The notes below the pieces were generated by a model, which was not told the DNA's origin, ran no database searches, and saw only the letters and a list, made by a program, of their open reading frames with translations. A stretch of DNA of 64,000 nt from an uncultured Bacilli bacterium (GTDB lineage Bacteria > Bacillota_I > Bacilli_A > RF39 > UBA660): positions 3,050-67,049 of the forward strand of contig CAKPSO010000002.1 of the NCBI GenBank assembly GCA_934183185.1. Reading direction: 5' to 3'. Shown piece after piece: positions 5,799 to 63,992 of the stretch. Position 1 is the first letter of the stretch, and each line of letters opens with the position of its first letter. The position numbers were made by a program, and so were the translations under genes.

Positions 5799-5922
5799 AT
5801 TTATACCTCCTTGTACAATTTAATTATATCATAAATATTGTTAAATCAATCTTTTTTTATAATTATTTTACATTATAATTCAATCGAACCATTTCTCTCT
5901 AACTGTGATTTCTTAGTTAATT

Positions 5923-6243: not shown

Positions 6244-6246
6244 AAA

Positions 6247-6585
6247 CTATTCTAAAATAATATTTTTAACACTAATTATTTCTTCATCAATCCACTTTAA
6301 ATATTCTTTATTTATACTTGATATATCATATATAGCAAACTCAAAGCATTCATAACTATGAACATTCCTTATAACATCAAATATTTTAGTTGAACAACTT
6401 TTTTTCGTCTTCATTTGAAGTAAATATTCTTTAGCAGCTTCTCGTTCATTCTTCCAATTCCAAATACTTTCACTTTCTATAGCATGACAACTTGCCACTA
6501 ATTTCTTATCTAATAATTGATTTATAACATTATTTAATTCTTCTTTATTATCAAATGCACTTTCTATCATACAATAATCATTCAT
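6247..6585 (-). CDS. cutA: CutA1 divalent-ion tolerance protein family
   Basis: 112 aa with VASCHAI...SIWNWKNE...NVHSYECFEF pattern typical of the CutA1 trimer family. Confidence 0.65.
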   Translation of the reverse strand: MNDYCMIESAFDNKEELNNVINQLLDKKLVASCHAIESESIWNWKNEREAAKEYLLQMKTKKSCSTKIFDVIRNVHSYECFEFAIYDISSINKEYLKWIDEEIISVKNIILE

Positions 6586-6598
6586 TATAAAAACCTCC

Positions 6599-7168
6599 CT
6601 ATAAATTTAAAATGAAATTATTTCCTTTATTTCTTATTTGTTCCATTTTATCTTTAGTATCTTTTAATTTATAGTCAAATCTATCAACTAACTTATTAAC
6701 ATAATCTAATTCTCTAATATAATTTAAACTCTCATCAAAATATAAACCATATATAAATGCAATATAAGAAATCCATATGTCAATTGGTGTTTTCCTATTC
6801 TTACTTAATATAGTTTTTTCATTCATAAAATCATTAAAAATATTATCTGATATTAATGAATTTTCAATTTCCTCTTGTGTCATATTTGCCATCGTATAAA
6901 TATCATCTTCATACTTTGCTCTAAATGAATCCAATTTATCAGCATCTCTAATAATTTTTGAATGTAATGCTTGTATTTCATCCATACTATCAAAATCAAC
7001 GATATATTTACTATGATTAGATATAGCAATTTTTATAATTTCATCATATTTATCAAATTCAACAAAACTTCTAATTAAATTATTTTCTATTAATAATTTA
7101 TCATTATTTATTTGTTGTTGTAATAATTCTAAATCTTTAATATTTTTATTATTCTTTAATACTTCCAT
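6599..7168 (-). CDS. HD-domain phosphohydrolase-like protein, probably C-terminal fragment
   Basis: Contains IIRDADKLDSFRA (terminal Asp motif of HD domains) but lacks the upstream H..HD motifs. Confidence 0.35.
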   Translation of the reverse strand: MEVLKNNKNIKDLELLQQQINNDKLLIENNLIRSFVEFDKYDEIIKIAISNHSKYIVDFDSMDEIQALHSKIIRDADKLDSFRAKYEDDIYTMANMTQEEIENSLISDNIFNDFMNEKTILSKNRKTPIDIWISYIAFIYGLYFDESLNYIRELDYVNKLVDRFDYKLKDTKDKMEQIRNKGNNFILNL

Positions 7169-7284
7169 TTATTATTATTGGAATAGTATTACAAAAATCA
7201 CATATTACCTTAACCTCGATTCTAAAGATTCTTCAATTTCAATTTCTTCTTTAATAATATTTACCATAGACAAATCCTTTCTAT

Positions 7285-7440
7285 GATTTTTTCAAAAAAA
7301 ACGAAAAAATCAATCATTTCTGATTGATTCATATATATAAGTTCGAATAGTTCGAACAGATTCTCTAGTGGTGCGAGTGTCGTAGTAATCTACAACTTTC
7401 TCACAAAGACGATTGATATTAGAATCAATCTCTAAATTCA
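7285..7440. repeat. att-like repeat copy B: copy of tRNA-Leu 3' end (TGGTGCG), its 3' flank hairpin and a terminator-like hairpin
   Basis: 7333-7375 AGTTCGAATAGTTCGAACAGATTCTCTAGTGGTGCG identical to 9874-9910; upstream 7285-7332 imperfectly matches 9821-9873. Confidence 0.6.
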
Positions 7441-7479
7441 TTTTAACATAAAAAATAAATAGTAGCAATAATTATGCCA

Positions 7480-8274
7480 CTATTTTCTTTTTTTTGTTAA
7501 AGTTGGTCCGTTTTCAGTATGTGATTTTTGTGTTGCTTGTTGTTCTTCTAGTAATTCATTTTTTAAATTTTCTAATGCTTGTTTTTGGTCGCTAATACTT
7601 AATTCTTGTACAGGTTTAGCAACTTCTTCTTTTTTATCATCTGAACTATGACTTAAATCTAAATTAGTGTTATTTCGTAGTGCATTTGCAAAACTCTCTT
7701 TATCACCATATTTTTCCATTCCTGCTGAAACAATATTTTTCCAAGCCTCAATAACTTTTTTCTTTTGTTCATCTACTGTTAATCTAGAAGCATCACCATT
7801 AACTTTTAAAATTGTGATATTTTCTAATGAATCATCCATTTCGTAGAATATTTCACTTTTTTCAGTGTCAGTCTCAATTTTAATTGAAGCAGCTTTTGAT
7901 ATTCTTATTTCATCCTTTAGTGGAATAAGAAGAGCATTTAATCCTGTTGGTTTTTTTTGATATTCTTGCTTTTCTATTTCTGACATTTCTTCTAATGCAT
8001 CCATCACATTTAATTGATCCAATATCATAGGTCTAGCATTATTATATTGAACTGTTCTTTGAAAAACTTGCATAATGTTAAATATTGGTATTAACATTGA
8101 TAAAAGTGTAGCTTTTGATGCATTTGGATTTAATTGTTTACTTAAATCTGACAATCTTCTTATATCAATTTTATATCCAGCATCAGCAACATCCTTAAAC
8201 ATTCTCAATTCATTTGCCATTTCCATGCAAAAACTTGCAATACTTGTACCTAACCATAAAACTAAAAGTTCCAT
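7480..8274 (-). CDS. Hypothetical protein (264 aa), N-terminal hydrophobic segment
   Basis: Intact ORF within the tRNA-associated module, no motifs recognised. Confidence 0.4.
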   Translation of the reverse strand: MELLVLWLGTSIASFCMEMANELRMFKDVADAGYKIDIRRLSDLSKQLNPNASKATLLSMLIPIFNIMQVFQRTVQYNNARPMILDQLNVMDALEEMSEIEKQEYQKKPTGLNALLIPLKDEIRISKAASIKIETDTEKSEIFYEMDDSLENITILKVNGDASRLTVDEQKKKVIEAWKNIVSAGMEKYGDKESFANALRNNTNLDLSHSSDDKKEEVAKPVQELSISDQKQALENLKNELLEEQQATQKSHTENGPTLTKKRK

Positions 8275-8327
8275 AATAAATTCCTCCTTTGAATTAGATC
8301 ATATAATAACACATTTACATATATTAG

Positions 8328-9520
8328 TCAAATTTCCATTTCAAAATCATCTTTTTCTCTTTCATAATCGTGATTTTTACTAAATTCATAAGTATCTTGT
8401 AAATCATCAAATGTCTCTTCTTCAATAATTTTCTTTGAATATAAATCTTCTGCAACGTCCATATATTTTTCACGTTCTTTTTCTTTTCCAAATAGTTTAT
8501 CTTTGATGAAAGATATTACTTTCAAAAATTTATCTTTCCAAAATGATAATGATTGTCTTAAAGAAAGGTTTTCTTCTTTTAAATCTTTGATTGGTTTATC
8601 TTTAACTTTATTATTTTTAGTTAGTGTATCAACTCTTAATTGTAATGCCTCATTATTTTCAGTTAGAGTTTGTATTTCTTTTTGATTTTCTTGTATCCCT
8701 TTATCTACATTATTAAGAGTAATAGATAATGTTTGAATATTTTTATATTCATCATTTGTTGTATCAACTTGATTCATATATTTTTCAATTTTGTCTTTAT
8801 CTTCTTGTTTTAAAATATAGTTGTCTTTCTTAATTAGTGTTGGTTTTAAATCACTTGTTATTTCTTTAACTTCTTTTGACTTGTTATCTAGTTCAAGAGA
8901 TTTTTTATTAGCTTTTTCTAAATTTTCTTGATTCTTTTCTAGTTGTTCTTTCATTTCCATATAATTATCCATTTCAGTTATATGATAATCTCTATTTCTA
9001 CCTTTTTGCTTTTTCTTTAAAGAGTTTGTAAGATTATATTCTTTATTAAATGATTCAATACATAATCTTATCATTTTATCTTGAAGTTCTATTAGTTTTG
9101 TTTTAGTAAAACCATCAGATTTACCAACTTGTTTAGACATACCATTTTTACTTTTATATTTTATTGGAACACCTACAATATGCATATGTGGACTTGTTTC
9201 ATCATAATGAATAATTGCACTTGCTACTTTAAAATTTGGAATTAGATTTTCTAAATCTTTTACTTGTTCTTTATAGACATTAGACATTTTATGTTTAAAA
9301 TTATCATCTTTAGTATCCCAGTACTTTTTATCTCCAAGTTCAATAATTATCTCGCAATCCAAATCATTTTTTGAATTATCACTAATCTTTTAGAAATAGT
9401 CATCTATTTTTCTATCATCTCTTGTTTGTTTTGCATTATATTCAAGTCTTGCTTCTTCAAACTCTTCTTTATATAAATTTTTAACATCATCATATAGTGA
9501 AGTAGTACTCTAACTATTTC
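8328..9520 (-). pseudogene. mob: MobV-family (Mob_Pre) relaxase, N-terminally disrupted/frameshifted
   Basis: 8328..9362 encodes the HYDETSPHMHIVGVPI HxDE..PHxH relaxase motif and a coiled-coil C-terminus, but starts only at TTG. N-terminal-like residues (DDVKNLYKEEFEEARLEYNAKQTRDDRKIDDYF) sit in another frame at 9390-9500 after a stop. Confidence 0.5.
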
Positions 9521-9522
9521 AA

Positions 9523-9804
9523 TTAAATGCCTTTTAAATAATCTTCTAACTCTGATATTTTAATCTTTTGTGATAAATTTTTAATATAAATCTCATTAGA
9601 ATAATTAAAAGCAAGAAATGTTACACCTTTAATGATTATCTTATGTGGCTCTACATAAGAAAGATTAGTTCTTGCTACCTTATGAATATAACCATTTATA
9701 AAAGTAGGTGTAGTATGTGAAAATTCACATATAAATTCTAATCTTTGTCTTAAAGATTCATCAAATGCAATTTCTTGCTTAATAATATTAATCATAAATA
9801 CCAT
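9523..9804 (-). CDS. Small hypothetical protein (93 aa), paralog of 4774..5034
   Basis: ATG with AGGAAAGG RBS; first gene downstream of the tRNA pair. Confidence 0.4.
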   Translation of the reverse strand: MVFMINIIKQEIAFDESLRQRLEFICEFSHTTPTFINGYIHKVARTNLSYVEPHKIIIKGVTFLAFNYSNEIYIKNLSQKIKISELEDYLKGI

Positions 9805-9820
9805 CCTTTCCTAATAGGAT

Positions 9821-9903
9821 GATTTTCCATAAAACGAAAAAATCAACCCAATTTGAGTTGATATTTATATTTAAAGTTCGAATAGTTCGAACAGATTCTC
9901 TAG
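9821..9903. repeat. att-like repeat copy C: native 3' flank of tRNA-Leu (hairpin GTTCGAA-TAG-TTCGAAC plus rho-independent terminator)
   Basis: Minus strand after tRNA 3' end: UCAAC-UCAAAUUGG-GUUGA followed by UUUUUU. Confidence 0.6.
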
Positions 9904-9988
9904 TGGTGCGGGTAACAGGAGTTGAACCTGCAAGCCTTGCGGCGCTAGATCCTAAGTCTAGTGCGTCTGCCAATTCCGCCATACCCGC
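9904..9988 (-). tRNA. tRNA-Leu (anticodon UAG), long variable arm, encoded CCA
   Basis: Reverse complement GCGGGTATGGCGGAATTGGCAGACGCACTAGACTTAGGATCTAGCGCCGCAAGGCTTGCAGGTTCAACTCCTGTTACCCGCACCA. Confidence 0.9.
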
Positions 9989-9993
9989 AAAAA

Positions 9994-10070
9994 TGGTGGA
10001 CCCTGATGGACTCGAACCATCGACCGCCCGGTTATGAGCCGGATGCTCTAACCAACTGAGCTAAGGGTCC
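9994..10070 (-). tRNA. tRNA with CAU anticodon, sequence resembles tRNA-Ile2 (lysidine) more than elongator Met; encoded CCA
   Basis: Reverse complement GGACCCTTAGCTCAGTTGGTTAGAGCATCCGGCTCATAACCGGGCGGTCGATGGTTCGAGTCCATCAGGGTCCACCA closely matches Bacillus tRNA-Ile(CAU) architecture. Confidence 0.8.
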
Positions 10071-10151
10071 ATGACTATTTAATAATAGCACAAAGATAAA
10101 TAGTATGCAACAACTTTTGTTAAAAAAAATTAATTTCCCTTAATTTTATTT

Positions 10152-15344: not shown

Positions 15345-15590
15345 TCCTCCTTACAATATAAAAAGGTAGTCCATCTAAGGACGAGTTTCCCCGTGGTGCC
15401 ACCTTTATTTTTTCTTAATTCTTTAACGCAGACATACGATTACCATAAATGAAAAGTGTCTTCATTAGTTATTACTAAGTATTTCCATCAACCATACTCT
15501 TTCTATAAGAGATATACTAATTACTCTTCTTTTCAGGTATAAGTTAATTTTACTATAATCATTGGGATTTTTCAAGCTGATTTTCATTTA
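15345..15590 (-). promoter_or_regulatory. T-box riboswitch leader (His specifier CAC) controlling the 152-aa ORF-hisS-aspS operon
   Basis: Minus strand contains T-box sequence AAAGGUGGCACCACGGGG, a terminator plus U-run, stem I AGAGU region and a specifier-like loop GACACUU. Confidence 0.65.
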
Positions 15591-31954: not shown

Positions 31955-32200
31955 TTACCTCCAAAAAAGCGACCACTCGTATAAGGACGAATGATCGCGG
32001 TACCACCTTAATTCATAGTATAAACTATGCAACTTTATTTTTTTAACGCAAAATTACGTCCAATATTAATTGGAAACTCATAAGGTGAATTCATAAGAAT
32101 CTATTTATTTGTTTGCACCAACCACAAATTCTCTGATAATAGATTATCTTATTACTACTTCTTATTCAACGTTTTTATGTCAATGATTATAACTCTAATC
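31955..32200 (-). promoter_or_regulatory. T-box riboswitch leader (Phe specifier UUC) for esterase-pheS-pheT
   Basis: Minus strand AAGGUGGUACCGCGAUC T-box sequence, terminator GCGAUCA...UGGUCGC plus UUUUUU, AGAGA stem I element, GAAUUCACC specifier-like segment. Confidence 0.7.
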
Positions 32201-39678: not shown

Positions 39679-42234
39679 TTATCTTGTTTTTTGCACTGAT
39701 TCTTCTACTACTTGATCAACACTATCCATTGCTTGTAAATCTTCTGAGTAGGATGATTGTTGTTCAAATTGTTTGATCAATTCATCTTCATCAAAATATG
39801 TAGCATTTGGTGGAGTAATATTACCATCTACGATTGGTGCATAATCAGGTGTTGGTGTAGGATTAACATCTGGCGTTGGAGTAACGTCTGGTGTTGGTTC
39901 TACAGTAGGTTCAGTAGTAGGTTGTGGGGTAATAACAGGTTCAGGTGTAGGAACATCTTTATTAGAATCTTCACTATTTCCTTTATTGATTACATCATCT
40001 ATTGTACCATTATTCCCTGTTGGATCAGTAGTTATTGTTCCAGGCTGAACATAATCTGGAACTTTGTTTGCTTCTTGCATACGTTTTTGATAGTCAGCTT
40101 GGCCATCTGATTTACCTTGGCTATAAGCACTACGGATAGTGCTATTTGCTGATGATGCATAACTACTATTATACTCATCTGTTCCACCTTGATTATAGTA
40201 GTTATAGGTATTAGCATATACGTTTTTATATAAGTTATCTAAGCCATCTTTCTTTGCTTTCTCATATCTATTTTTAACATTGGCATCGGTAGATGTTGAA
40301 TACTTAGTCATTTCACCAGTATTACCACTGGCAAAATAGTTAAATACATCATTATAATCAACTTGAAGTGCTGCTTTTTCTTGTCTTGCAATTTGCTCAT
40401 GTTTTTGCTTTGTGGCATCAGTATCTCTTTCAGAACCTACTGCTTTAGATGCGTCTTCTTCAGACTTAATAATTCCAGCTTCTGCCTCTGCTGGTGTGTT
40501 ACCATTGGCTACTAATGAATCTTTAGCTGCAGCTGTATTAGATGTTTCTAATATTTCTTGAAGTTTACTAGAATATGCTTTATCTGAGCCACCAATTTTT
40601 GATAATTCTTGTAAAGCTGTTTCAGTAACTTTTTCCCAGAAGGTATTAGAGTACATTTCGTTTTTGGTTAATGATTCAAGTTTTTGGTTAAGCATTGAAG
40701 CTATTAAATCATTATCATATGTATACTTAGTAAGTTCACCAATTACTGCATCTTCATTATCAAAATTCATATTACTAACTGCTTCAGCTACTTTATCAGC
40801 ATCTATTTTACCATCTTCGTCAGTATATACTGTAAGTTGTGCTTTTAAAGCTTGTTTATTATCTTCAACCATTTTGTCAGATGTCTCTAAATTTACTCTA
40901 TACTCATCGGCATCTCTAAATTTTTCTTCTTGTTCACCGCAAGATAAATCAGCTATACTTTCCTTAGTTCCATCTATTCCAAGATAATATTTTTCAGGAT
41001 TATATCCTAATTGTTTTAAGAAGTGGTTTTCATCAAACTCAGCAAATCCTTGAACATATCTACTCATAAATACTTCATCGAATAGATCTACCTTTACTTC
41101 AACTTCTTTAGCAGTACCAGTTGTATATATAGTCATTTTATCTTTATAATTTCTTAAATCAGCTTCTCTTTGATCTGCAGGTAACATTGTTCTTAATAGA
41201 TAAGAAGTTGAGCCAGCACGTGCTTTAGTTTCTTTACCTTCAATATCACTATTGAAGTAATCTTTATACATTTCTTTTTCTGCTTGCATTAATGTTTCTT
41301 TTTCATTAATTCCGGCACTCATCATTTTAGCATGATGTTCTTCAAATGTATTTATTACTTCTTTATCATGTTCATCATTGAAAAGTGATGAAATATTTGA
41401 TGTCTGATTACTTAATGAATAATATAAATTCATTTTTTCCATGAAATCATTACTTAAATCCATTATTTCATCAGCATTTATATTGCTTCCATTACAGATA
41501 GTAATTAATTCCTCATCAGTAAAATTATTAAATCTTAAATAGAAAGCCATTGTTTCTTTTGGCGTAAATCCAAATCTTGATTCTTGACCATTATTATTAG
41601 TTCTTGTCATCCAAGATTGTGAGTTATTGAATTCAAGTAGCCAAGTGCCTACTTTTGTCCAAGCTTCTTTTTGAATACTATCAATAGCATTTTCTGTGTA
41701 ATAATCCCAATCTTGACCATCCATACTAGGTTTTACTATCTCATCATTTACTTCTTCTTGAGTTTCTTCTGTAACTGGTTCTGCTTGATGATTACGAGCA
41801 TATGTAACACCCGCAACAGCTCCAGCTGTTACAGCAATGCCCAAACCAGTAAGTGCCATAGCTGTAGTAAGACGTGATTTACCGTTATTATCAACATTAT
41901 CATTCAAACTATCTCTATATTGTTCATATAATTCTAAACTTTTAGAGTTAGAAGCTTTGAAAAATTGTAAATCTTCTGAATCTTTTAATACTCCATTTTG
42001 TTTATTCAATGTGAATGAATTAGCAGAAAGACATTGACTAAATAATTTAGTCATATTTTGTCTTCCTTTAATATCATTCATTGCTTCGGCACTTACTATA
42101 CCATTTGTACCATCAGCATATTCAATTAATAATTGATAAACGCAATCTTTTTGAGTAACTTTAGGATCTGTTGCTTTATCAATTAATACTACTTTTAAAT
42201 TTTTAATATTTTTTGTATTAATTTGTTCTTCCAT
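39679..42234 (-). CDS. Large bitopic protein: ~120-aa cytoplasmic N-domain, one TM helix, ~700-aa extracellular domain, PT-rich C-terminal tail
   Basis: TM LTTAMALTGLGIAVTAGAVAGV; C-terminal TPEPVITPQPTTEPTVEPTPDVTPTPDVNPTPTPD. Confidence 0.45.
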   Translation of the reverse strand: MEEQINTKNIKNLKVVLIDKATDPKVTQKDCVYQLLIEYADGTNGIVSAEAMNDIKGRQNMTKLFSQCLSANSFTLNKQNGVLKDSEDLQFFKASNSKSLELYEQYRDSLNDNVDNNGKSRLTTAMALTGLGIAVTAGAVAGVTYARNHQAEPVTEETQEEVNDEIVKPSMDGQDWDYYTENAIDSIQKEAWTKVGTWLLEFNNSQSWMTRTNNNGQESRFGFTPKETMAFYLRFNNFTDEELITICNGSNINADEIMDLSNDFMEKMNLYYSLSNQTSNISSLFNDEHDKEVINTFEEHHAKMMSAGINEKETLMQAEKEMYKDYFNSDIEGKETKARAGSTSYLLRTMLPADQREADLRNYKDKMTIYTTGTAKEVEVKVDLFDEVFMSRYVQGFAEFDENHFLKQLGYNPEKYYLGIDGTKESIADLSCGEQEEKFRDADEYRVNLETSDKMVEDNKQALKAQLTVYTDEDGKIDADKVAEAVSNMNFDNEDAVIGELTKYTYDNDLIASMLNQKLESLTKNEMYSNTFWEKVTETALQELSKIGGSDKAYSSKLQEILETSNTAAAKDSLVANGNTPAEAEAGIIKSEEDASKAVGSERDTDATKQKHEQIARQEKAALQVDYNDVFNYFASGNTGEMTKYSTSTDANVKNRYEKAKKDGLDNLYKNVYANTYNYYNQGGTDEYNSSYASSANSTIRSAYSQGKSDGQADYQKRMQEANKVPDYVQPGTITTDPTGNNGTIDDVINKGNSEDSNKDVPTPEPVITPQPTTEPTVEPTPDVTPTPDVNPTPTPDYAPIVDGNITPPNATYFDEDELIKQFEQQSSYSEDLQAMDSVDQVVEESVQKTR

Positions 42235-42247
42235 TATGTTTCACCCC

Positions 42248-43780
42248 TTATTTATTTCTTGTTTTTCCGGTATATGTATAACCATTATTTAATAAGTTTT
42301 TATCTCCGTATGAACTCCATAAGTAAGTAGTTTTAGCTTCTTGAACATTAGTACATGTTTTCTCACGATAGAAATGAACATCACCATAAATTGCCTTTTC
42401 AGCTGATTTTTGAACTGTTTTAATTTCAGTTATAGTTCTATTTATATATAATGGGATTGAACGTGTTTCTACACTTGTACAAGTAGCTGTTACAGTAGCT
42501 GCAGAAGTGTGAGAAGTTCCATTACGTTTATATAAATGCCATACTGTATATGGGTGATTTGTACATGTTGCACCACATTCACCATAGTCTACCCCAACAG
42601 GTAACCATTTTGCAGTAGGGGTTGGATCTGATGGTGGATTGTATCCTCTATGTTCTTGTTTAGTATCATACCAATCACCTGTTACTTGAGTAATAGTATT
42701 TCCTGATACAACGTAATTATATCCTGTACATACTTTATAATCATGAGTGCCTACTTGAACTTGTTCAGGATAAGTAAATGTTACTTTTTCATAAACGGCT
42801 GGTTCAGTACCAATTTGTACTTTCTTAGTGCCTAAATCTTCTACTACTTTATAAATGTTATTTACTGTAGTTAAACTTTGTCCTGATTTAAGAAGTTTTG
42901 TTGACCAATTTGACCAGTTACTACAATAAGCTTCAGTATATTTTCTATATTCATATTCTTTTACTGGATTGTTACTTGGTTTTGGAGTACATTCATCTTT
43001 CCAAGTTTCAAAACTTACTTCAGTTGCATTTTTACCATAGTATTTACCATCTTTTATCTCACAAGCCTTTGGAACATCTGGAGTAACTGTTGGTGTTGGA
43101 GTTACTGTAGGTGTAGTTGTTGGCGTTGTAGTTGGTGTAGGTGTAGGTTTAACAGTTGGTGTATTAGTTGGAGTAAGTGTTGGTCTTGGGCTGTTACTTG
43201 GTTTAGGTGTTGGTTTATTAGTTAGTTTAGGTGTAGTTGAAGGTTTTTCAGTATTATTAGGTTTAGCTTCACAAATATCTGTTGAACAGTATGAGTAGCA
43301 TCCTAAATGTACTAAAATATAGTTTTCTTCTTCACTACATTTTAAGTTAACTTTCATTAGATATTCAGTATCTTTTTTCTCTAATGATACATATGATGCT
43401 GTTACATCACATGCTTTACCATTCTTATCAACAAATGGTATTAATAACTTCATGTCTAACATTTCTTGTAATGTCATTTTCTTAACATCACCTACATTTT
43501 CTGGTAATCTCTCAGTTGTATAGTAAGTGATTGCAGCATTCTTCATTTCTTGAATGTTAGCATTGAATATTTGATCCTTTAATGGGTTTAAAGCATCAAT
43601 ATATGAGTCCATTTTAGGCCATGGTACTAGCCATATAAGTAATAACACAAAGATGATAATCAAAATTAGCTTTAGTAAAAAGCTTTTTAGTAGATTTCCT
43701 TTTCTTTCTTCTGTATACATATTATAATCTCCCCCTTTGTTTATGTGCCGTATTATAGCATAAAACAAATTTTTTGTCAA
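42248..43780 (-). CDS. Signal-anchored Cys-rich extracellular protein with PT-rich linker
   Basis: N-terminal TM LLKLILIIIFVLLLIWLV, linker PTPKPSNSPRPTLTPTNTPTVKPTPTPTTTPTTTPTVTPTPTVTP, many Cys; 14-nt gap to upstream gene. Confidence 0.45.
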   Translation of the reverse strand: MTKNLFYAIIRHINKGGDYNMYTEERKGNLLKSFLLKLILIIIFVLLLIWLVPWPKMDSYIDALNPLKDQIFNANIQEMKNAAITYYTTERLPENVGDVKKMTLQEMLDMKLLIPFVDKNGKACDVTASYVSLEKKDTEYLMKVNLKCSEEENYILVHLGCYSYCSTDICEAKPNNTEKPSTTPKLTNKPTPKPSNSPRPTLTPTNTPTVKPTPTPTTTPTTTPTVTPTPTVTPDVPKACEIKDGKYYGKNATEVSFETWKDECTPKPSNNPVKEYEYRKYTEAYCSNWSNWSTKLLKSGQSLTTVNNIYKVVEDLGTKKVQIGTEPAVYEKVTFTYPEQVQVGTHDYKVCTGYNYVVSGNTITQVTGDWYDTKQEHRGYNPPSDPTPTAKWLPVGVDYGECGATCTNHPYTVWHLYKRNGTSHTSAATVTATCTSVETRSIPLYINRTITEIKTVQKSAEKAIYGDVHFYREKTCTNVQEAKTTYLWSSYGDKNLLNNGYTYTGKTRNK

Positions 43781-46755: not shown

Positions 46756-46942
46756 TTATGAATCATTCCTCCTTTTCTTTTATATTACATCTATATAAAT
46801 TTTATAAATGCCTGAAATTCGTGGCCGCGGCTTTTCATAAAAGGAGAAAAGCTATAGCCTCATATATCAATATTTTTTTAATTAATGATTTATACTTTTC
46901 TCCAATTCCTGTTTACGCGAGTGTTAACGGCACATTCGGTGC

Positions 46943-48871
46943 CTACGGAGCAAGCACTACACGAAAAGAATTGTACGTGTCCACATCGCCTGGACCGAAG
47001 CCGAATGCAAATGCACCAGATTCAGTGGCATTGTACCAATAGCCCCCGCGTACGAACCAAGGAAAATAAAAATCAGCAAAGAGAGCGAGATCTCCATACC
47101 AACTTGATTTTTGCCTAGTTGTACCATCTGGATCTTTTTCACTTCCAAATGGGCCCATCTCTCCAGTTGCATCTCCTAAAATTCTATTATTATATTGTGT
47201 TTTAGAAATTGATGTATATTTATCCCAATATTTTGTATAAGTACTATTAGTAAAGAAGTCTTGATATATACTAGTTATTTCGCTTTTTCCCCCTACTGTT
47301 GTTGCACCAGTAGTATAGCCTGCTACATATTCCCAGGCACCTCCTGCCATATCATAAATTCCACTTCTATTTCCTGTAGTTGATGCTACACCTGAGTTAG
47401 CATTTAAATAATTTACAGTATAGGTTCCATCTACTCCTAAAGAAGTTGATTCATGTCTATTAGTATCGGTACTTGAACTAGTTGGACCAGTTGTTGGCTC
47501 AGTAGTTGATGCATAACCGGTAATATATGCTTCATTATTATTTATTCTGATACTAGCTTTACTACCATATACTGAATGTTGTAAGTATGCTACCGCTCCC
47601 CACTCTGTATTCTTCATCATATGTGAATCTAAATTTCTTTGATAATCATAACTATTTTTAAAAGCATTACCTACAGTTATATTTCGCCAACTATATACAT
47701 TTGGTTTTATTATTATCTTACTTGTATCTACACTGTTTACTTGGGCGGCACTAGTACTTGTAGCTTTATCATATCCAGTTTCAAACTTTCCTACCCAGAA
47801 ACCATTTGAATCAAAACTAGTAAATGCTGGATGAGTTAACCATGAGTCCTTAGTAGTTCCATTTGATGGAGTTGTATCTTTATTCTCAAATACTACATTT
47901 ATGGTTTGAACTTTGTTTTCGATACTAGTTAGGCTTGTATAATTACCTTCATCAAATATTTGGTATTTGAACCTAGGTATCCATACAAAGTATGACTCAA
48001 TATTATCTTCTGGTATTGTTTCTCCATTATTATAAGTTTTTGTTTCATCTTTTAATATTATGGCATTGGCCCATTCTTTATTTTCATACTTGTACCATTC
48101 TTTACTTATGTCTGCCTTAGTTACTGTTCCATCACCAGCTATTTTTATTGGTATTAAATTACCCTTTAATACTGGGTCTGTTCCATTTAATATTGTTTCT
48201 TTATATGCAGTTGTTTCTTTTTCTATATCCACATTTGAATATACATTTACTGTTGCTTTAAACGTTTTATCATTATATGGATATACTTGATTACCACTAT
48301 TATCTTTTGTTGGTGAAAAGTCTGTAGCCTCATCTATCCATATTCTTAATCTAAAACTCTTTTCATAATTAGTAGTATTTGCTTTTATTGTTGATTGGTA
48401 TAAAGTCTTTTCTATATTACCATTTACTTCTACCTTTGTATCAGCTAATTGATTATACTTAGTTGGTGCTACTAATACTCTTTCCGTTGTATCTGTAGTA
48501 TCAGTTAAATATACTTTTACTACACTAGAATCTAGTGTTGAATCGCTACTCTTTCTTAATGTTACTTCATATGGCATAATAGTATCTCCAGTATTTGTTG
48601 CCTGTACTTTAAAATCAAAAATATTATTATTACCTTCTAATAGTTTTCCTTGACTATCTGATATTGGAAAGGCATTAGTCATAGTTATACCATTTCCTCC
48701 ACCACTATTTTCTGTATATATAAATTTTAATGTTCCTGTAGTTACTGTATTATCTGTAGTTCCTAATTTTGTATAAGTAAATACTGCATAAGTTACTCCC
48801 GTAGTTATTAATAGTAGGCTAGCTATTCCAAGTAAAGATACTATTATTTGTCTACTCTTATTACTCATCAT
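46943..48871 (-). CDS. TasA/camelysin-like secreted protein (SipW-cognate signal) with C-terminal FGE-sulfatase-like domain
   Basis: N-terminus LLLITTGVTYAVFTYTKLGTTDNTVTTGTLKF matches GxTxAxF(S/T)D...GTL pattern of TasA/CalY; C-terminal GIYDMAGGAWEY and RGGYW...FRVV resemble FGE-sulfatase fold. Confidence 0.6.
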   Translation of the reverse strand: MMSNKSRQIIVSLLGIASLLLITTGVTYAVFTYTKLGTTDNTVTTGTLKFIYTENSGGGNGITMTNAFPISDSQGKLLEGNNNIFDFKVQATNTGDTIMPYEVTLRKSSDSTLDSSVVKVYLTDTTDTTERVLVAPTKYNQLADTKVEVNGNIEKTLYQSTIKANTTNYEKSFRLRIWIDEATDFSPTKDNSGNQVYPYNDKTFKATVNVYSNVDIEKETTAYKETILNGTDPVLKGNLIPIKIAGDGTVTKADISKEWYKYENKEWANAIILKDETKTYNNGETIPEDNIESYFVWIPRFKYQIFDEGNYTSLTSIENKVQTINVVFENKDTTPSNGTTKDSWLTHPAFTSFDSNGFWVGKFETGYDKATSTSAAQVNSVDTSKIIIKPNVYSWRNITVGNAFKNSYDYQRNLDSHMMKNTEWGAVAYLQHSVYGSKASIRINNNEAYITGYASTTEPTTGPTSSSTDTNRHESTSLGVDGTYTVNYLNANSGVASTTGNRSGIYDMAGGAWEYVAGYTTGATTVGGKSEITSIYQDFFTNSTYTKYWDKYTSISKTQYNNRILGDATGEMGPFGSEKDPDGTTRQKSSWYGDLALFADFYFPWFVRGGYWYNATESGAFAFGFGPGDVDTYNSFRVVLAP

Positions 48872-57548: not shown

Positions 57549-58148
57549 CTATGATGCACAGGTATTGCTACTATATATAGTAGCAATCCAATCTATTCTA
57601 TTACCGTTAGTATCGGTTGGTTGAAGATTTTCTAAGCCTTTGATAGTTGACAAAACAGCTTTTTTACCAGATGGGGTTCCACATAGAGACTGAATAGTTA
57701 CTTCCATTTTATTCTTAGCATCTGATATTACTTCACTACGATTTACATCATCAATATTCATTAGTGGAATAGCATGACGATCTTTGTCCTGCCCAGCTAC
57801 AAGATATGTATATTCAATATTATTAGGAGTTCCAGTATTTACAACTGCTACATAACTTTTACTTTTTACCCACTCACTGTCAAAGGAAGATGAAAATTTA
57901 CCTTTATCAAGTGGTATTGATTCTAATGAAACGATTAAAACTTGATTAAAATCTATTGGTGCCGTATAATCTTCTGCTGCTATTCCTTTACGAACTGCAT
58001 CTACATATTCAGATAAAACATCGGCGAAGGCTTCTCTTTTAGATGAATCTATATAATTAGAAGCTGCTGGAATAGCTATAGTTAAAACAATACTTAATAT
58101 TACTACTACGCCTAATAATTCTACTAGTGTAAAGCCTTTTCTATTCAT
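57549..58148 (-). CDS. Type IV pilin-like protein (prepilin N-terminus, C-terminal disulfide loop)
   Basis: MNRKGFTLVELLGVVVIL class III signal with G-F cleavage site and E+5; Cys pair near C-terminus. Confidence 0.75.
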   Translation of the reverse strand: MNRKGFTLVELLGVVVILSIVLTIAIPAASNYIDSSKREAFADVLSEYVDAVRKGIAAEDYTAPIDFNQVLIVSLESIPLDKGKFSSSFDSEWVKSKSYVAVVNTGTPNNIEYTYLVAGQDKDRHAIPLMNIDDVNRSEVISDAKNKMEVTIQSLCGTPSGKKAVLSTIKGLENLQPTDTNGNRIDWIATIYSSNTCAS

Positions 58149-58226: not shown

Positions 58227-58826
58227 TTATTTAGCTACTTCTTTTACAGTGATGACATTCTGTTCAGTGCTACTAGCTTTTTCTAATCTACCGTTAGTTG
58301 CTACTTTAAAATAAGTTGGTGTTGATGAAGTAGTATCATATATTTTTTCAAAACCATTGCTGTCTAGACGAATTACATCTGATGCTTTTAGACTTTTTTC
58401 ATCTATTATTTCAAGATTTTTATTTGAACCAGTTACATATTTACCATCTGATGCTGTTACATAATAATCGTATTTTGGTGAATCTGCTGATCCTGTATTT
58501 ACTATTATTACATAAGAATTATCTAACTTCCATGGTAAGTCATATGAACTATTTACTCCACCTTTTTCAATAGCGATACTTAATACGCTAAATGGTACTA
58601 CTGTTGCATCGTTAGTATCGATTGGATAACTATATTCATCTCCTAATGTTGCTCCTTTTCTTGCAGCATCTATAAATTGAATTAAGTTATCTTTATATCC
58701 ATTCTTTCTTGATTTAGTTATATATTGAGATACAGCTGGGATAGCTATTCCTAATACTACAGCTAAAATTACGATTACAGCTAGTAATTCAATTAATGTG
58801 AACCCTTTCTTATTTAATTTCTTCAT
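58227..58826 (-). CDS. Type IV pilin-like protein, copy 1 of duplicated gene
   Basis: MKKLNKKGFTLIELLAVIVILAVVLGIAIP prepilin motif; first ~140 codons identical to 61292..61873. Confidence 0.75.
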   Translation of the reverse strand: MKKLNKKGFTLIELLAVIVILAVVLGIAIPAVSQYITKSRKNGYKDNLIQFIDAARKGATLGDEYSYPIDTNDATVVPFSVLSIAIEKGGVNSSYDLPWKLDNSYVIIVNTGSADSPKYDYYVTASDGKYVTGSNKNLEIIDEKSLKASDVIRLDSNGFEKIYDTTSSTPTYFKVATNGRLEKASSTEQNVITVKEVAK

Positions 58827-58931: not shown

Positions 58932-59435
58932 TTAGTTACTACAAGTTCTAATTCCACCAGTTACACCAGTGATACTACGAATATCGCTATCAGTTGGCAC
59001 TGTAAAGTTTTTAACTACATAGCTTAATTTGCCATCTTCATCAAGTTTTTTCTTTTCTGTTAGGCGAATTCCTCTATTCTTACCGTTTTCACCAGCTACA
59101 AGATTAACATAGTAGACTAGTTCTTCGTCTTTATGGACCACAATCACAAAGGAATCAGTTTCGCTATATTCATTTCCATCAGGATCTTTAGTTAGGTCCT
59201 GATTATCAACACATGATAGGTTGATTCTTACTATTTCACCAGCTACTGGTTTACTGATTGTGTTAGCTAATTCTGTTTTGGCTTGGGTTAAAAACTTTTT
59301 AGCATCTGATATATAAGTTTCTTTTTTGCTTTTTTCTAAGCTAGATACTATATTTGGTATAGCTATTCCCATAATAATAGAGAGAATTACCAATACTGCT
59401 AAAAGTTCTATTAATGTAAATCCACGTTTATTCAT
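58932..59435 (-). CDS. Type IV pilin-like protein with C-terminal Cys pair
   Basis: MNKRGFTLIELLAVLVILSIIMGIAIP prepilin motif. Confidence 0.75.
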   Translation of the reverse strand: MNKRGFTLIELLAVLVILSIIMGIAIPNIVSSLEKSKKETYISDAKKFLTQAKTELANTISKPVAGEIVRINLSCVDNQDLTKDPDGNEYSETDSFVIVVHKDEELVYYVNLVAGENGKNRGIRLTEKKKLDEDGKLSYVVKNFTVPTDSDIRSITGVTGGIRTCSN

Positions 59436-59466: not shown

Positions 59467-61197
59467 TTAACTTATAACGTATGGGTCAGAACTTGTCCCA
59501 GTTCCCGTTACCAGCATGTCAGCATTCAGGCTCAAAACTGCACGAAGGCGATTAGTAACATTAACATTGTCGTTATTGATGTTACCTGACGTATTTACGC
59601 GCCATACAGTCGAACCCAAGAAGCCGGCCGGGCTCATTGTCCACCAATTAATAGCTGAATTATATAAATAATATTTACTATTATCTTTTCCATAATAACC
59701 ACCTGCATGTACTACTTCATCATAACTTAATAATCCCACACTGGCATTGACTGGTCCTTTTCCATTTCCATCGGTTGTACATTTAAAATCTGGCGTATAA
59801 CTTGAGTATAATGTCATTGTTGCACTTCCCGATGTCCAACTTGAATCACATTTAGCTTTTGCTTGTTCACAATAATAATTGCCACTAGCTACATTTTTAA
59901 CTAAGTCTGCTTTACTTCCGATATTCGTTTGATACCAGCTTTCAAGTTGAGTCTTAGCTTCACTATTTGAATAATACATATAAGTATAGTTTTTATAATT
60001 TGGATTAAATGCAATATTAGCATTACTATTGATTCCATCTTGCATTACGATTCTTATTGTTCCATCTTCATTTACTCTTACTATTCTCCATGTTTGACCA
60101 GCAAACTTTACATAGTTATTAGTAACATTTCCTCTAAAGTAATATGTTGGATTTCCTGTATTAGTAGCAGTCGATTTATATAATCCACTTGCATCACTTG
60201 TATTATTACTTGATGTAGTAAGTGTTGGATTAGCTGTAATTATTGTATTTTTCATTATTTCATCTTTTAATGGTACTGCCTGTTTTACTTTAATATTAAT
60301 TTTGTATTCTTTAGTTACTGTTTGATCTGTACTAGTAATAGTTACTTTATAGATATTATTACCACCTACTAGACTTACTTCACTATTATTTGATATTACT
60401 TGATTATCTTTTTCTATCTTTACATTAGCTAATGAATACTTAGGTACTATATTTAACTTAGTAGTAGTTTCACTATCTAACTCTACTTCATAGTTCCAGT
60501 CTTTTCCTTCTACTTTAGTTAAACTGGTATCTCCTATAGTTATATCTTTTATATCAGTATTACTTCTTAATACTTGTTCTTCAGCTGATATTACTTTAGC
60601 ATTTGAATATACATTTACTGTTGCTGTAAAGGTTTGTCCTCCTATAACGCTTAAATCTGCATTTTCATCTAACCACATTTTTAATCTAAATGTCTTTAAA
60701 TAATTATTAGTATTTCCTGCTACTTCTCCTTTATAGATACTCTTTTCTACATTATTTCCAACATCAGTAGTAGTTTGTACTAATTTACTATATAGTGTTG
60801 GTGTTAGTAATTCTGTTTGATCTATCCCATCTTGAAGATATACTTTTATATTATCTTCTCCCATAGTAGAAGTAGCTTTCTTTCTTAGTGTTACTTCATA
60901 TGGTATTACTTCACTTCCAGTATTTGTTCCTTCTACTTTGAAATCAAATACATTATTATCTCCTACTAATTCTTTACCCTTAGTATCTGATATTGGTTCT
61001 GCTTCAGTTATACTTATTCCATTACCATTAGTATTATTTTCTGTATACAAGAACTTTAATGTACCAGTAGTTATGATATTATCTGTAGTTCCTTCCTTTG
61101 TATAAGTAAATACTGCATAGGTTACTCCTATAGTTATTAAAAATAAACTTACTATTCCTAGTAATGATACTATTAGTTGCCTCCTATTAGTCTTCAT
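59467..61197 (-). CDS. TasA/camelysin-like secreted protein (SipW-cognate signal) paralog with distinct C-terminal domain
   Basis: LFLITIGVTYAVFTYTKEGTTDNIITTGTLKF; first ~200 aa homologous to 46943..48871; C-terminus WWTMSPAG...NRLRAVLSL. Confidence 0.6.
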   Translation of the reverse strand: MKTNRRQLIVSLLGIVSLFLITIGVTYAVFTYTKEGTTDNIITTGTLKFLYTENNTNGNGISITEAEPISDTKGKELVGDNNVFDFKVEGTNTGSEVIPYEVTLRKKATSTMGEDNIKVYLQDGIDQTELLTPTLYSKLVQTTTDVGNNVEKSIYKGEVAGNTNNYLKTFRLKMWLDENADLSVIGGQTFTATVNVYSNAKVISAEEQVLRSNTDIKDITIGDTSLTKVEGKDWNYEVELDSETTTKLNIVPKYSLANVKIEKDNQVISNNSEVSLVGGNNIYKVTITSTDQTVTKEYKINIKVKQAVPLKDEIMKNTIITANPTLTTSSNNTSDASGLYKSTATNTGNPTYYFRGNVTNNYVKFAGQTWRIVRVNEDGTIRIVMQDGINSNANIAFNPNYKNYTYMYYSNSEAKTQLESWYQTNIGSKADLVKNVASGNYYCEQAKAKCDSSWTSGSATMTLYSSYTPDFKCTTDGNGKGPVNASVGLLSYDEVVHAGGYYGKDNSKYYLYNSAINWWTMSPAGFLGSTVWRVNTSGNINNDNVNVTNRLRAVLSLNADMLVTGTGTSSDPYVIS

Positions 61198-61291: not shown

Positions 61292-61873
61292 TTATTTAGA
61301 AGCTACTTCTTTTACAGTTATTGTTCCATTAGAATCAGATGTTAGTCTACCAGTTGATGCGTTAACAGTAAATTTATTACCAACTGCTATAGTACTGAAT
61401 CCATTATTATCTAGACGAATTACATCTGCTGCTTTTAAATTCTTTTCATTAATAATTTCAAGATTTTTATTTGAACCAGTTACATATTTACCATCTGATG
61501 CTGTTACATAATAATCGTATTTTGGTGAATCTGCTGATCCTGTATTTACTATTATTACATAAGAATTATCTAACTTCCATGGTAAGTCATATGAACTATT
61601 TACTCCACCTTTTTCAATAGCGATACTTAATACGCTAAATGGTACTACTGTTGCATCGTTAGTATCGATTGGATAACTATATTCATCTCCTAATGTTGCT
61701 CCTTTTCTTGCAGCATCTATAAATTGAATTAAGTTATCTTTATATCCATTCTTTCTTGATTTAGTTATATATTGAGATACAGCTGGGATAGCTATTCCTA
61801 ATACTACAGCTAAAATTACGATTACAGCTAGTAATTCAATTAATGTGAACCCTTTCTTATTTAATTTCTTCAT
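61292..61873 (-). CDS. Type IV pilin-like protein, copy 2 of duplicated gene
   Basis: Identical N-terminal 140 aa to 58227..58826, divergent C-terminus. Confidence 0.75.
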   Translation of the reverse strand: MKKLNKKGFTLIELLAVIVILAVVLGIAIPAVSQYITKSRKNGYKDNLIQFIDAARKGATLGDEYSYPIDTNDATVVPFSVLSIAIEKGGVNSSYDLPWKLDNSYVIIVNTGSADSPKYDYYVTASDGKYVTGSNKNLEIINEKNLKAADVIRLDNNGFSTIAVGNKFTVNASTGRLTSDSNGTITVKEVASK

Positions 61874-61964: not shown

Positions 61965-63992
61965 TTACTCAACTTCTTCAAACTGAGAGTTATATAAATC
62001 AGCATAGAAGCCATTTTTTCTCATCAATTGATTATGATTACCCATTTCAATAATATTTCCCTCTTTCATTACTAATATTAAATCAGCATTTTTGATAGTT
62101 GATAATCTATGGGCAATTATAAATGATGTTTTCCCTTCAGTTAATTTATCCATGGCTTTTTGAACTAATTCCTCAGTTCTAGTATCAACATTAGATGTTG
62201 CTTCATCTAAAATTAAGAATGGAGCTTTTTCTATCATACCACGGGCTATAGTTAATAGCTGTTTCTGTCCCTGACTGATAGTATCACTGTCTAGAATTTC
62301 TGAATGGATACCACCTGGTAAGGTTTTAATAAAATGATCTATTCCTACTACTTTGCATGATTCCCATACTTCTTTTTCGGTTACATTTTCATTATTAAAC
62401 TTAATATTTTCTAAAATACTTCCCTCAAATAACCAGGTATCCTGTAGTACCATACAGAAAAGGTCATGAATATTTTCCCTAGTTAATTCTTTAGTTGATA
62501 CACCATCTATTAATATTTCGCCATCATTTATTTCATAGAATTTCATTAATAGATTTACCATTGTGGTTTTACCAGCACCAGTAGGACCAACAATAGCTAT
62601 TTTTTGTCCTGGTTTTACATGAACACTAAAATCTTTAATAATAGTTCTAGTATCATCATAGCCAAACTTAACGTGTTTAAATTCTATTTCACCCTTTACT
62701 TTGGTTTTTTCTAACTTTTTAGTTATATGATTTTGATTAGACATTTCTTTTTCATCTAAAAATTCAAATACCCTTTCACTAGCTGCAGCAGTAGACTGTA
62801 AGTATGTCATAGCTTGAGCAATTTGAGTAAGAGGATTAGTAAATAAACGTACATAAATAATAAAAGCAACTATTACTCCAAATGATATTTGATTATTTAT
62901 TACTAATAATGCTCCAACAATGCAAACTGCTAGGTAGCCAAAGTTTCCAATAAAGCCCATAATCGGTTGCATAAGTCCTGATAAAAATTGACTCTTACGA
63001 TTAGAATTATATAATTTTTTATTTAACATAGAAAAATGTTCTATAGCTTCATTACTACCATTATAAGCTTTAACTACATTGTGGCCTGAATACATTTCTT
63101 CAATATAACCATTTAAATCACCAAGTTCTGCTTGCTTTTCAGTAAAGTACTTTTGCGATTTTCCTAGTATTATAAACATTATAGAAAAACCAATTAAGCT
63201 AGATAATATAGCAGTAATTGCCATAATCCAGTTAGTTACAAACATCATTATTACTGAACCAATAAATAATGTAGAACTACTTACTAAGCTAGCTAAACTT
63301 TGATTTAAGTTTTGACTAATAGTATCAACATCATTAGTTACTCTTGATAAAATATCTCCAGTTTCATGGGTATCAAAATACTTAAGTGGTAATTTATTAA
63401 TTTTAGTACTTATCTTACTTCTTAGCTTTTTAGCAAAATTATTAGAAACTGTAGTCATTGAGAAGTTTTGAATAAAACTAAATATTGCGCTTATTACATA
63501 TAATGATGCTAGTAAAAATACATATTTATATACTTTATTCATATCTATTTTAGGCTCTACTAATTTATAAATAGAGGCAGGTAATTTATCTAATTCATTT
63601 AGTACTTGAGAATCTTTTTTATCACTAATTGAAGACATTAAAGTAATAAATTCTAGTTGGTCTTTACTGGTAATTGTTTGATTATCTATTTTAATGTCAT
63701 CAAACATTTCTAATAGAATATTAGGAGGAAGATTAGTTATCTGTTTTATATATTCTTTACTATTAGTATTAGTTAGAAAATCCTGTAAGGCTAGTTTATC
63801 AGTAGTACTTATGTCGGGATTAGTTAGTATATTTTTTATTTTTACTTCTAATTTATCTTCAGTAAAATTACTTGAAATAGTTTTAGTTACCTCTTCTAAT
63901 TTTTCAGTATTTGGTTTTAATCCTTCAGTTATTATATCAGTAAAATCTGATAGTTTATTAGGAGCAATTAGGGCTAATATTGCGCTAGCCAT
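61965..63992 (-). CDS. ABC exporter (fused TMD-NBD), N-terminus probably continues beyond window end
   Basis: Walker A GPTGAGKTT, signature ISQGQKQLL, Walker B FLILDEATS; frame open to position 64000. Confidence 0.8.
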   Translation of the reverse strand: MASAILALIAPNKLSDFTDIITEGLKPNTEKLEEVTKTISSNFTEDKLEVKIKNILTNPDISTTDKLALQDFLTNTNSKEYIKQITNLPPNILLEMFDDIKIDNQTITSKDQLEFITLMSSISDKKDSQVLNELDKLPASIYKLVEPKIDMNKVYKYVFLLASLYVISAIFSFIQNFSMTTVSNNFAKKLRSKISTKINKLPLKYFDTHETGDILSRVTNDVDTISQNLNQSLASLVSSSTLFIGSVIMMFVTNWIMAITAILSSLIGFSIMFIILGKSQKYFTEKQAELGDLNGYIEEMYSGHNVVKAYNGSNEAIEHFSMLNKKLYNSNRKSQFLSGLMQPIMGFIGNFGYLAVCIVGALLVINNQISFGVIVAFIIYVRLFTNPLTQIAQAMTYLQSTAAASERVFEFLDEKEMSNQNHITKKLEKTKVKGEIEFKHVKFGYDDTRTIIKDFSVHVKPGQKIAIVGPTGAGKTTMVNLLMKFYEINDGEILIDGVSTKELTRENIHDLFCMVLQDTWLFEGSILENIKFNNENVTEKEVWESCKVVGIDHFIKTLPGGIHSEILDSDTISQGQKQLLTIARGMIEKAPFLILDEATSNVDTRTEELVQKAMDKLTEGKTSFIIAHRLSTIKNADLILVMKEGNIIEMGNHNQLMRKNGFYADLYNSQFEEVE

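Follow-up and report, generated by a model that had tools for sequence, protein, structure and literature searches.

Why does a gene in a low-GC genome end in a block of conspicuously GC-rich DNA? We asked this of a gene, here called paralog 2, at positions 59467 to 61197 (minus strand) of a 64,000-nt stretch of contig CAKPSO010000002.1 from an uncultured Bacilli bacterium (GTDB RF39; UBA660); the whole analyzed stretch is referred to as the window. An earlier sequence-only reading had noted the anomaly in this gene and in a second one, paralog 1, and had attributed it to a shared mobile 3′ module or recombination target. In a diversity-generating retroelement (DGR), a template repeat (TR) is transcribed, a reverse transcriptase copies it while misincorporating bases opposite its adenines, and the resulting complementary DNA (cDNA) replaces a variable region (VR) at the 3′ end of a target gene. 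We conclude that the paralog-2 block is most probably the variable region, together with its flanking framework, of a DGR target gene. The gene and its parts are as follows.

59467–61197, minus strand: target gene, paralog 2, an open reading frame (ORF) of 576 amino acids with an N-terminal hydrophobic segment, weak Cadherin-like beta-sandwich domains and a C-terminal DUF6273 domain with the variable region
59620–59646, minus strand: A-poor 5′ framework of the variable region, TGGTGGACAATGAGCCCGGCCGGCTTC (WWTMSPAGF)
59551–59619, minus strand: variable-region core, amino acids 527–549, LGSTVWRVNTSGNINNDNVNVTN, with NNY hypervariable codons amid fixed framework codons
59518–59550, minus strand: 3′ framework, CGCCTTCGTGCAGTTTTGAGCCTGAATGCTGAC (RLRAVLSLNAD), directly 3′ of the last variable codon
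59467–59517, minus strand: C-terminal tail MLVTGTGTSSDPYVIS and stop codon, with GC content still elevated; one of two tail classes in the family

We first quantified the base composition of the block. The 186 nt at 59467–59652, whose sense strand is the minus strand, contain 45.2% GC, compared to a window mean of 28.5% (standard deviation 4.6% across 186-nt windows; z = 3.66). The GC-rich 3′ end is therefore confirmed, and the C-terminal peptide and the plus-strand string GAAGCCGGCCGGGCTCATTGTCCACC quoted for it are both found there. The figure of about 50% GC was right in direction but slightly generous, as the peak reaches 48% in 120-nt windows. Across the 64-kb window, only 0.39% of 186-nt windows have a GC content of at least 45.2%, and they come from just three places: the paralog-2 block, the paralog-1 block (46872–47180) and two tRNA genes (9833–10127).

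The shift is specific to one base. On the sense strand, the gene body is composed of 44% A, 11% C, 18% G and 27% T, and the block of 27% A, 20% C, 25% G and 28% T; adenine drops and thymine holds steady. G+C at third codon positions rises from 12% in the gene body to 48% in the block. Arginine is encoded by AGA or AGG in 9 of 9 cases in the body and by CGC or CGT in 3 of 3 cases in the block, and leucine by TTA in 23 of 33 cases in the body and by TTG, CTT or CTG in 5 of 5 cases in the block. Because synonymous sites shift as well, amino-acid content is ruled out as the cause of the composition. The block is adenine-poor, rather than generally enriched in GC.

The position of the block within the protein agrees with a DGR target. 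Pfam assigns amino acids 472–558 of the 576 to DUF6273 (25.3 bits; cutoff 23.5), and the A-poor block spans amino acids 518–576, at the C-terminal end of this domain. DUF6273 has been described as C-type-lectin-like, and DGR variable regions have been placed at its C-terminus (PMC11792537, PMC10743442, bioRxiv 10.1101/2024.10.15.618418). Within the paralog-2 family, 17 of 55 members match DUF6273 and 48 of 55 match Cadherin-like. The AlphaFold2 model of paralog 2 has a mean predicted local distance difference test (pLDDT) score of 72, with low confidence for residues 1–81. Compared to BFVD, the model matches phage DUF6273 proteins (best template modeling score 0.65, normalized by target), and a Foldseek search of the full-length model against the PDB returned generic beta-sandwich matches only. 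The label "TasA-like", which the N-terminus had been given, is unsupported by any Pfam, NCBIfam or PDB sequence match.

Homologues of both paralogs number in the thousands in gut metagenome assemblies, with at least 13 family copies in one metagenome-assembled genome, often at contig ends. In both families, an invariant framework alternates with hypervariable positions over the C-terminal 40–50 residues (about 115 homologues). The paralog-2 family follows the pattern WWTMSPAGF.GS.S.VW.V...G.I....V..T.RLRAVL, and the paralog-1 family (115 homologues) the pattern SSWYGD.A.FA.SS.PWF.RGG.W..G..SGAFAF....G......SFRVVL. Mean column entropy in the variable stretch is 2.10 bits in the paralog-2 family and 1.62 bits in the paralog-1 family, compared to 0.78 and 0.79 bits, respectively, in the rest of the proteins; the variable positions of the paralog-2 core reach 2.7–3.6 bits. 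Two giant proteins, P0242 (4905 amino acids) and P0243 (3528 amino acids), contain 11 and 5 separate stretches, respectively, that resemble the VR and tail peptide, and may be multi-domain relatives with many lectin-like modules.

The codons used at these positions are equally structured. In 13 codon-aligned VR DNAs, variable codons carry all four bases at positions 1 and 2 and only C or T at position 3, and invariant columns are almost never A. Correspondingly, the amino acids K, E, Q, M and W, which have no NNY codon, make up 3.4% of hypervariable VR columns in the paralog-2 family and 5.3% in the paralog-1 family, compared to 19.6% and 26.5% in variable columns elsewhere in the same proteins. 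An AAY codon design is a trait of DGR template repeats (PMC5758913). In all of the roughly 30 homologues examined at the DNA level, from many low-GC genomes, the A-poor block occupies the same place in the domain.

The framework is conserved as DNA, and not merely as protein. The 5′ framework (59620–59646) is conserved across paralogues and species, synonymous sites included, and is identical or nearly so in the related loci L001, L002, L158 and L159 and in the UMGS484 paralogues. Inside the VR core, the fixed framework codons are GTA-TGG, GGT, ATC and GTT. The 3′ framework (59518–59550) uses CGC, CTT, CGT and CTG, codons atypical for the host genome, and its DNA is identical between L158 and L159. 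An A-free, GC-rich framework follows the last variable codon both here and in L166 (GGCGTCCGGCCCGTCGTCAGC), and we regard 59518–59550 as a candidate homing region, resembling the initiation of mutagenic homing (IMH) element.

We then compared alleles of a single locus. L158 and L159 are one locus from two samples and differ at 38 sites over the 1752-nt gene and 300 nt of flank (2052 nt). The VR accounts for 27 of these differences, packed into 74 nt, and the 389 nt that follow have none. The 27 are distributed over codon positions 1, 2 and 3 as 15, 9 and 3, many of them are transversions, and one allele has A at 21 of them; every differing site fits a template A. Setting each differing site to A yields the inferred template AAT GGT TCA AAT TCA AAT GTA TGG AAC GTA AAT ACA ACA GGT AAC ATC AAT AAC AAC AAT GTT ACT AAT ACT AAT. 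At 22 of the 27 sites, a template-like copy in locus L157 also has A, and the VR core of the window itself mismatches the inferred template at 11 A sites and 2 non-A sites (p = 1.7e-4). The remaining 11 differences between L158 and L159 form a second cluster at gene positions 660–1014 (for example 683–692, 753–755 and 786–788), outside the VR and in or near the weakly Cadherin-like part. Paralog 1 shows a similar pattern when compared to the syntenic locus L169: about 34 VR differences fall at codon positions 1 and 2 and one or two at position 3, and the intergenic DNA downstream is 98% identical.

The copy in L157 belongs to a recurrent layout among relatives. An artificial all-Asn peptide, used as a probe, led to P0241, from which a full HMMER search brought up many short ORFs rich in N. 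P0241 itself (L157 209–442) reads an in-frame TAG as Gln and is a spurious ORF over the copy, called with an alternative genetic code. In the recurrent layout, a family gene is followed about 90–330 nt downstream by a 5′-truncated copy of its own 3′ end, and the truncated copies carry AAY at the variable codons (L157, L051/L136, L160–L163, L164, L166–L168). The template-like copies were located at the following positions.

L157, 262–442: template-like copy
L051, about 9760–9950, minus strand: template-like copy
L160, 1740–1949: template-like copy
L164, 426–638: template-like copy
L166, 10001–10252: template-like copy

Mismatches between each copy and its gene are concentrated at the adenines of the copy: 23 at A and 1 at non-A in L164 (Fisher P-value 5.7e-12), 21 and 5 in L166 (1.5e-7) and 12 and 2 in L160 (3.8e-5). 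In these mismatches of L166, the A is always on the side of the truncated copy, opposite G, T or C in the gene. In four metagenome samples, a truncated copy is identical over 210 nt; two of the samples share one VR and the other two differ. The 5′ limit of copy homology falls inside the 5′ framework stretch, and the copies run through the tail and the stop codon and about 25 nt further. Indels of 3 and 6 nt adjoin the AAY runs, and template slippage indels have been reported for DGRs (PMC5758913). The copies may be separate transcription units, weakly so, since a terminator-like hairpin follows one copy and a promoter-like site precedes another. A further hairpin lies just upstream of the copy in L157 (about 251–272) and in L051 (about 9933–9954); its stems are identical (GGGGCC / GGCCCC), and its 10-nt loop is reverse-complemented between the two loci (AGCTAAAGCA versus TGCTTTAGCT), a difference that looks like an inversion of the whole hairpin.

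The same question applies to paralog 1, whose parts are listed here.

46943–48871, minus strand: target gene, paralog 1, an ORF of 642 amino acids with the N-terminal architecture of paralog 2 and a different C-terminal domain
46943–47104, minus strand: paralog-1 variable region block, SSWYGD to FRVVLAP plus stop codon, with 19% A and up to 53% GC
46929–46943, minus strand: GC-rich hairpin GGCAC-CGAAT-GTGCC, beginning at the final base of the stop codon of paralog 1

The two genes share their N-terminal part (300 nt of the 5′ region are 79% identical in a DNA repeat search), and paralog 1 does show the same 3′ anomaly, its A content falling from 42% in the body to 19% in the block. The domains ahead of the two end motifs differ, as had been stated: one is of DUF6273 type and the other weakly FGE-sulfatase-like, and an hhalign comparison gives a probability of 0.2%, so that no profile similarity is detected. 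FGE-sulfatase (PF03781) is the commonest Pfam match in the paralog-1 family (15 of 58 members; best E = 0.0024), with all matches below threshold, and the paralog-1 protein of the window has no Pfam match of its own, FGE-sulfatase included. Its AlphaFold2 model is unusable in the C-terminal domain (pLDDT < 50). At the DNA level, blastn with word size 7 against the whole window returned self matches only, and a repeat finder likewise detected no similarity between the blocks. The alignment of the blocks by DNA and protein profile, proposed as a check on the shared module, thus detected nothing. The end motifs NSFRVVLAP and NRLRAVLSL, each in its own family, are the conserved framework right after the hypervariable stretch.

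The two blocks have no sequence in common, which leaves no place for a mobile module shared between them. What unites the paralogs is, on our reading, a mechanism: both blocks are variable regions of DGR-type targets, paralog 1 being a second target whose lectin-like domain differs. The earlier intuition that the anomaly is non-random and has one underlying reason in both genes holds, in that both 3′ ends are special segments replaced as units.

A DGR mechanism would account for the composition of the block in the following way. Fixed residues would be written in A-free codons (CGC, CTG, CCG, GCC, GGC, TCG) and variable residues as AAY in the template. An A-free framework combined with randomized AAY adenines would produce a block of about 27% A and 45% GC within a coding strand of 44% A; the apparent GC richness would stem from the lack of adenine in the framework codons. 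Each new overwriting from the template would renew this composition in the face of AT mutation pressure, and the same replacement would preserve identical GC-rich synonymous codons in different paralogues and species (ATGAGCCCNGCCGGCTTC and CGCCTTCGT are examples). The homing element could be the A-free stretch at 59518–59550 or, as a weak candidate, the hairpin at 46929–46943. The surface diversified in this way would be the C-terminal end of the C-type-lectin-like DUF6273 domain.

Several alternative explanations could produce a distinct 3′ end. The one that survives best, which we nevertheless consider improbable, is gene conversion from silent cassettes without reverse transcription, in the manner of pilE/pilS, where the truncated copies are donors, homologous recombination carries 3′ segments from one paralogue to another and the composition is inherited with the cassette. 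The truncated, promoter-proximal copies of the 3′ end directly behind expressed genes fit such a process, as does the absence of a reverse transcriptase within 10 kb. VR and tail are also exchanged between divergent genes (the window versus L002 and L001, and five further pairs). In particular, the window VR is 98.5% identical to that of L002, even though the gene bodies are only 78% identical, and the closest gene body, L001 (91%), has a VR that is 62% identical and the other tail class. Therefore, recombination between family members also moves 3′ ends, and the recombination component of the earlier proposal is borne out. However, a gene differs from its copy almost only at the adenines of the copy, which are randomly replaced, an outcome that conversion cannot yield and that is the hallmark of DGR reverse transcriptases. 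The direction in L166 is unambiguous, from A in the copy to never A in the gene, and plain conversion gives no reason for an NNY alphabet or an A-free framework. Recombination is probably an addition to retrohoming, and not a substitute for it.

Still less probable is a 3′ module, mobile or acquired horizontally, that both paralogues share and that came from a donor richer in GC. The block is locally foreign in composition, and its 3′ end has a mosaic history. However, such an origin does not explain why A alone is depleted with T unchanged, or why two blocks without DNA or profile similarity should have come from one module. It also conflicts with the A-poor block at the same domain position in every homologue examined, about 30 with DNA, in many low-GC genomes, and the shared module is rejected on these grounds; the lack of similarity and the conserved presence are what the earlier reading had itself named as its refutation. 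No similar DNA was found in phage records (blastn and tblastn) or in viral contigs, where a DNA pattern and a protein alignment found no relatives.

We give hardly any weight to the idea that the block owes its composition to the amino acids it encodes, or to an RNA structure or terminator where the gene ends: the region does encode Gly, Ala, Pro and Arg and a small hairpin does lie 3′ of the paralog-1 stop codon, but the shift extends to synonymous sites, fold energies are no better than shuffled (z = −0.02 and −0.40 for the two 3′ ends), no Rfam family matches either block, and hypervariability with an adenine-specific pattern is left unexplained.

Several observations weigh against a DGR target and have to be set beside the evidence for it. 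A second copy of either block, which could serve as template, was not found in the window by repeat finder or sensitive blastn. Pfam detected no RVT_1 domain in 28 ORFs of the window, a scan that left out ORFs including those at 53.4–57.5 kb and 61965–63992, nor is RVT_1 in the Pfam list of the syntenic L169, equivalent to roughly 36–53 kb of the window. Across 732 kb of flanking DNA around 70 low-GC loci of the family, no credible reverse transcriptase turned up in a motif scan. As a check, the same scan flagged 11 of 17 viral-contig loci with a TR-like pattern, in each case next to the matching sequence, and Pfam RVT_1 bore out one of them, L172. Its single match in the family loci, L032, was rejected, having no RVT_1 domain. 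Likewise, the 10 kb to each side of the L166 copy (a 20-kb locus) contain no reverse transcriptase, nor do the 2–10 kb around the template-like copies of relatives.

Accessory genes and further templates gave a similar picture. No Avd/HRDC-type gene stands beside the window genes or the template-like copies, in an inspection that included no dedicated Avd profile search; the neighbors of these genes and copies are a hydrolase, an MgtC-like protein, SepF and a 302-amino-acid ORF that is Rpn-like by eye. In metagenome contigs, a template-specific pattern matched nothing, and a general pattern matched further full-length genes only, plus chance hits in high-GC soil contigs. Some template-gene mismatches occur at non-A sites, and there are length differences. 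The hairpin at 46929–46943 is a possible DGR target-recognition hairpin that matches published ones in part, and weak evidence as such. It appears in both the minimum-free-energy and the centroid folds, with a fold z-score that is not significant, and is kept in L169 with two substitutions (GACACCGAAGGTGCC). Published DGR hairpins have 7–10 bp stems and GRNA loops, 4–34 bp after the variable region (PMC3240598). A fold check of the 3′ end found no convincing hairpin 3′ of paralog 2.

Variable regions are also mostly stable. Among 34 protein pairs with gene bodies at least 95% identical, the VR is likewise at least 95% identical in 30 and largely rewritten in 4. In the window, the near-identity with the L002 VR and a 6-nt deletion, which leaves the core 6 nt shorter than the common form, point to recombination and perhaps to a VR that is quiescent or a relic in the host genome. 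DGRs may be silent in the laboratory and yet active in hosts, and targets outlive DGRs (bioRxiv 10.1101/2024.11.15.621889; PMC4891356; bioRxiv 10.1101/2024.10.15.618418). With neither a template nor a reverse transcriptase in the window or near the targets of relatives, a system currently active in the host genome, with a template and reverse transcriptase of its own, is what we infer rather than observe.

This lineage of small-genome gut Bacilli could use a split DGR, where some or all targets keep their own separately transcribed template, a 5′-truncated version of their 3′ end just behind the gene, and one distant reverse transcriptase, or one borne by a phage or conjugative element, serves a dozen or more targets in at least two lectin-like families. 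We offer this arrangement tentatively, and hold it to be possible rather than likely. The unusual lead is that templates stand beside targets with the reverse transcriptase not nearby, and it comes from the relatives and not from the window. Split DGRs would escape the standard DGR finders, whose search begins with a reverse transcriptase that has a template close by.

The genes around paralog 2 bear on its likely role. Pilin-like genes lie on both sides of it.

57549–58148, minus strand: type IV pilin-like gene downstream of paralog 2 (Pfam N_methyl, NCBIfam IV_pilin_GFxxxE)
58227–58826, minus strand: type IV pilin-like gene downstream of paralog 2 (Pfam N_methyl, NCBIfam IV_pilin_GFxxxE)
58932–59435, minus strand: type IV pilin-like gene downstream of paralog 2 (Pfam N_methyl, NCBIfam IV_pilin_GFxxxE)
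61292–61873, minus strand: type IV pilin-like gene directly upstream of paralog 2 (Pfam, NCBIfam)

The first three form a run directly downstream of paralog 2. The context of these pilin-like neighbors suggests a pilus-associated or surface role. Together with the hydrophobic N-terminal segment and the beta-sandwich domains, it indicates that the paralog-2 protein is probably surface-exposed, and the gene context suggests a variable ligand-binding adhesin as its most likely role. Two of the pilin-like genes, 58227–58826 and 61292–61873, lie on either side of paralog 2 and one further pilin gene; they are identical over the first 419 nt, cannot be aligned in their 3′ thirds (41% identity) and share the 20–30 nt upstream that are proximal to the ribosome-binding site. 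In L158 and L159 (1–9840), the family gene stands last in a conjugation or type IV secretion cluster with TrbL-like, TraC-like and VirB4/TraG-like ATPase genes and a glucosaminidase, and in L159 a coupling protein recognized by Pfam.

Other features of the window are separate from the two targets. The region 5256–9804 holds a run of small ORFs without Pfam match and a Mob_Pre relaxase-like gene (8328–9362), adjoins tRNA genes (9907–10070) and may be an integrated mobilizable element. Large proteins without Pfam match, encoded at 39679–42234, 42248–43780 and 1338–2741, contain Pro/Thr-rich repeat tracts (TPTPT...) that account for the smaller GC peaks at 39798–39974, 43054–43217 and 2547–2700. 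Ordinary T-box leaders (15374–15540 and 31980–32178) precede the His-tRNA and Phe-tRNA synthetase genes.

Comparison with known systems places the paralog-2 target in a familiar class. Gut-phage DUF6273 DGR targets (tentaclins and Mtd-like targets; Faecalibacterium prophages; Toutatisvirus) have the same Pfam domain, a C-terminal VR and AAY codons, and are matched structurally by the window model. In their cassettes, Avd, template repeat and reverse transcriptase are adjacent to the target or close to it, whereas none is nearby here. Unlike them, the window target is chromosomal, sits among type IV pilin-like genes and comes from families with at least 13 copies per genome. The prototype DGR of Bordetella phage BPP-1 (mtd-avd-TR-brt) likewise has its VR at the 3′ end of a lectin-fold protein with adenine-specific differences, and a GC-rich element and a hairpin adjoin its VR (PMC3240598), with possible counterparts here. 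Its canonical cassette is absent here, the stem of the paralog-1 hairpin measures 5 bp and its loop 5 nt, compared to 7–10 bp and a GRNA loop, and the template-like copies of relatives are whole 5′-truncated gene 3′ ends that include tail and stop codon.

Among chromosomal systems, the Treponema denticola DGR also has several dispersed surface-protein targets, and its target genes persist in isolates without the core element (PMC4891356, PMC5758913). In Treponema, the template lies with the reverse transcriptase, whereas in the relatives studied here the template-like copy lies with the target, away from any reverse transcriptase. Bacteroides pili offer another parallel, in that a gut commensal carries a diversified C-terminal ligand-binding domain beside pilus genes; they are type V pili of another phylum with another domain family, whereas the genes here are type IV pilin-like, and any link to a pilus is one of gene neighborhood only. 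Neisseria pilE/pilS and the Mycoplasma genitalium MgPa repeats are alike in their truncated donors near a surface gene and in their mosaic 3′ ends, but the donor-gene differences here are adenine-specific and randomizing rather than copy-and-paste. The locus is best explained as a known kind of system in a little-studied gut bacterium, and what it adds is a DUF6273-type target on the chromosome of uncultured gut Bacilli, along with a second target that has another lectin-like domain.

These findings have consequences for how such systems are recognized. In an AT-rich genome, a steep fall in A content over the 3′ end of a surface-protein gene, visible as a peak in GC, can mark out a DGR variable region before any reverse transcriptase is known. 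If templates are truly unlinked from the reverse transcriptase, current surveys undercount such systems. For uncultured gut Bacilli themselves, the data indicate two large protein families, hypervariable and probably exposed at the surface, whose pilin-like and conjugation gene neighbors suggest programmable adhesins, comparable to the recently described Bacteroides pili.

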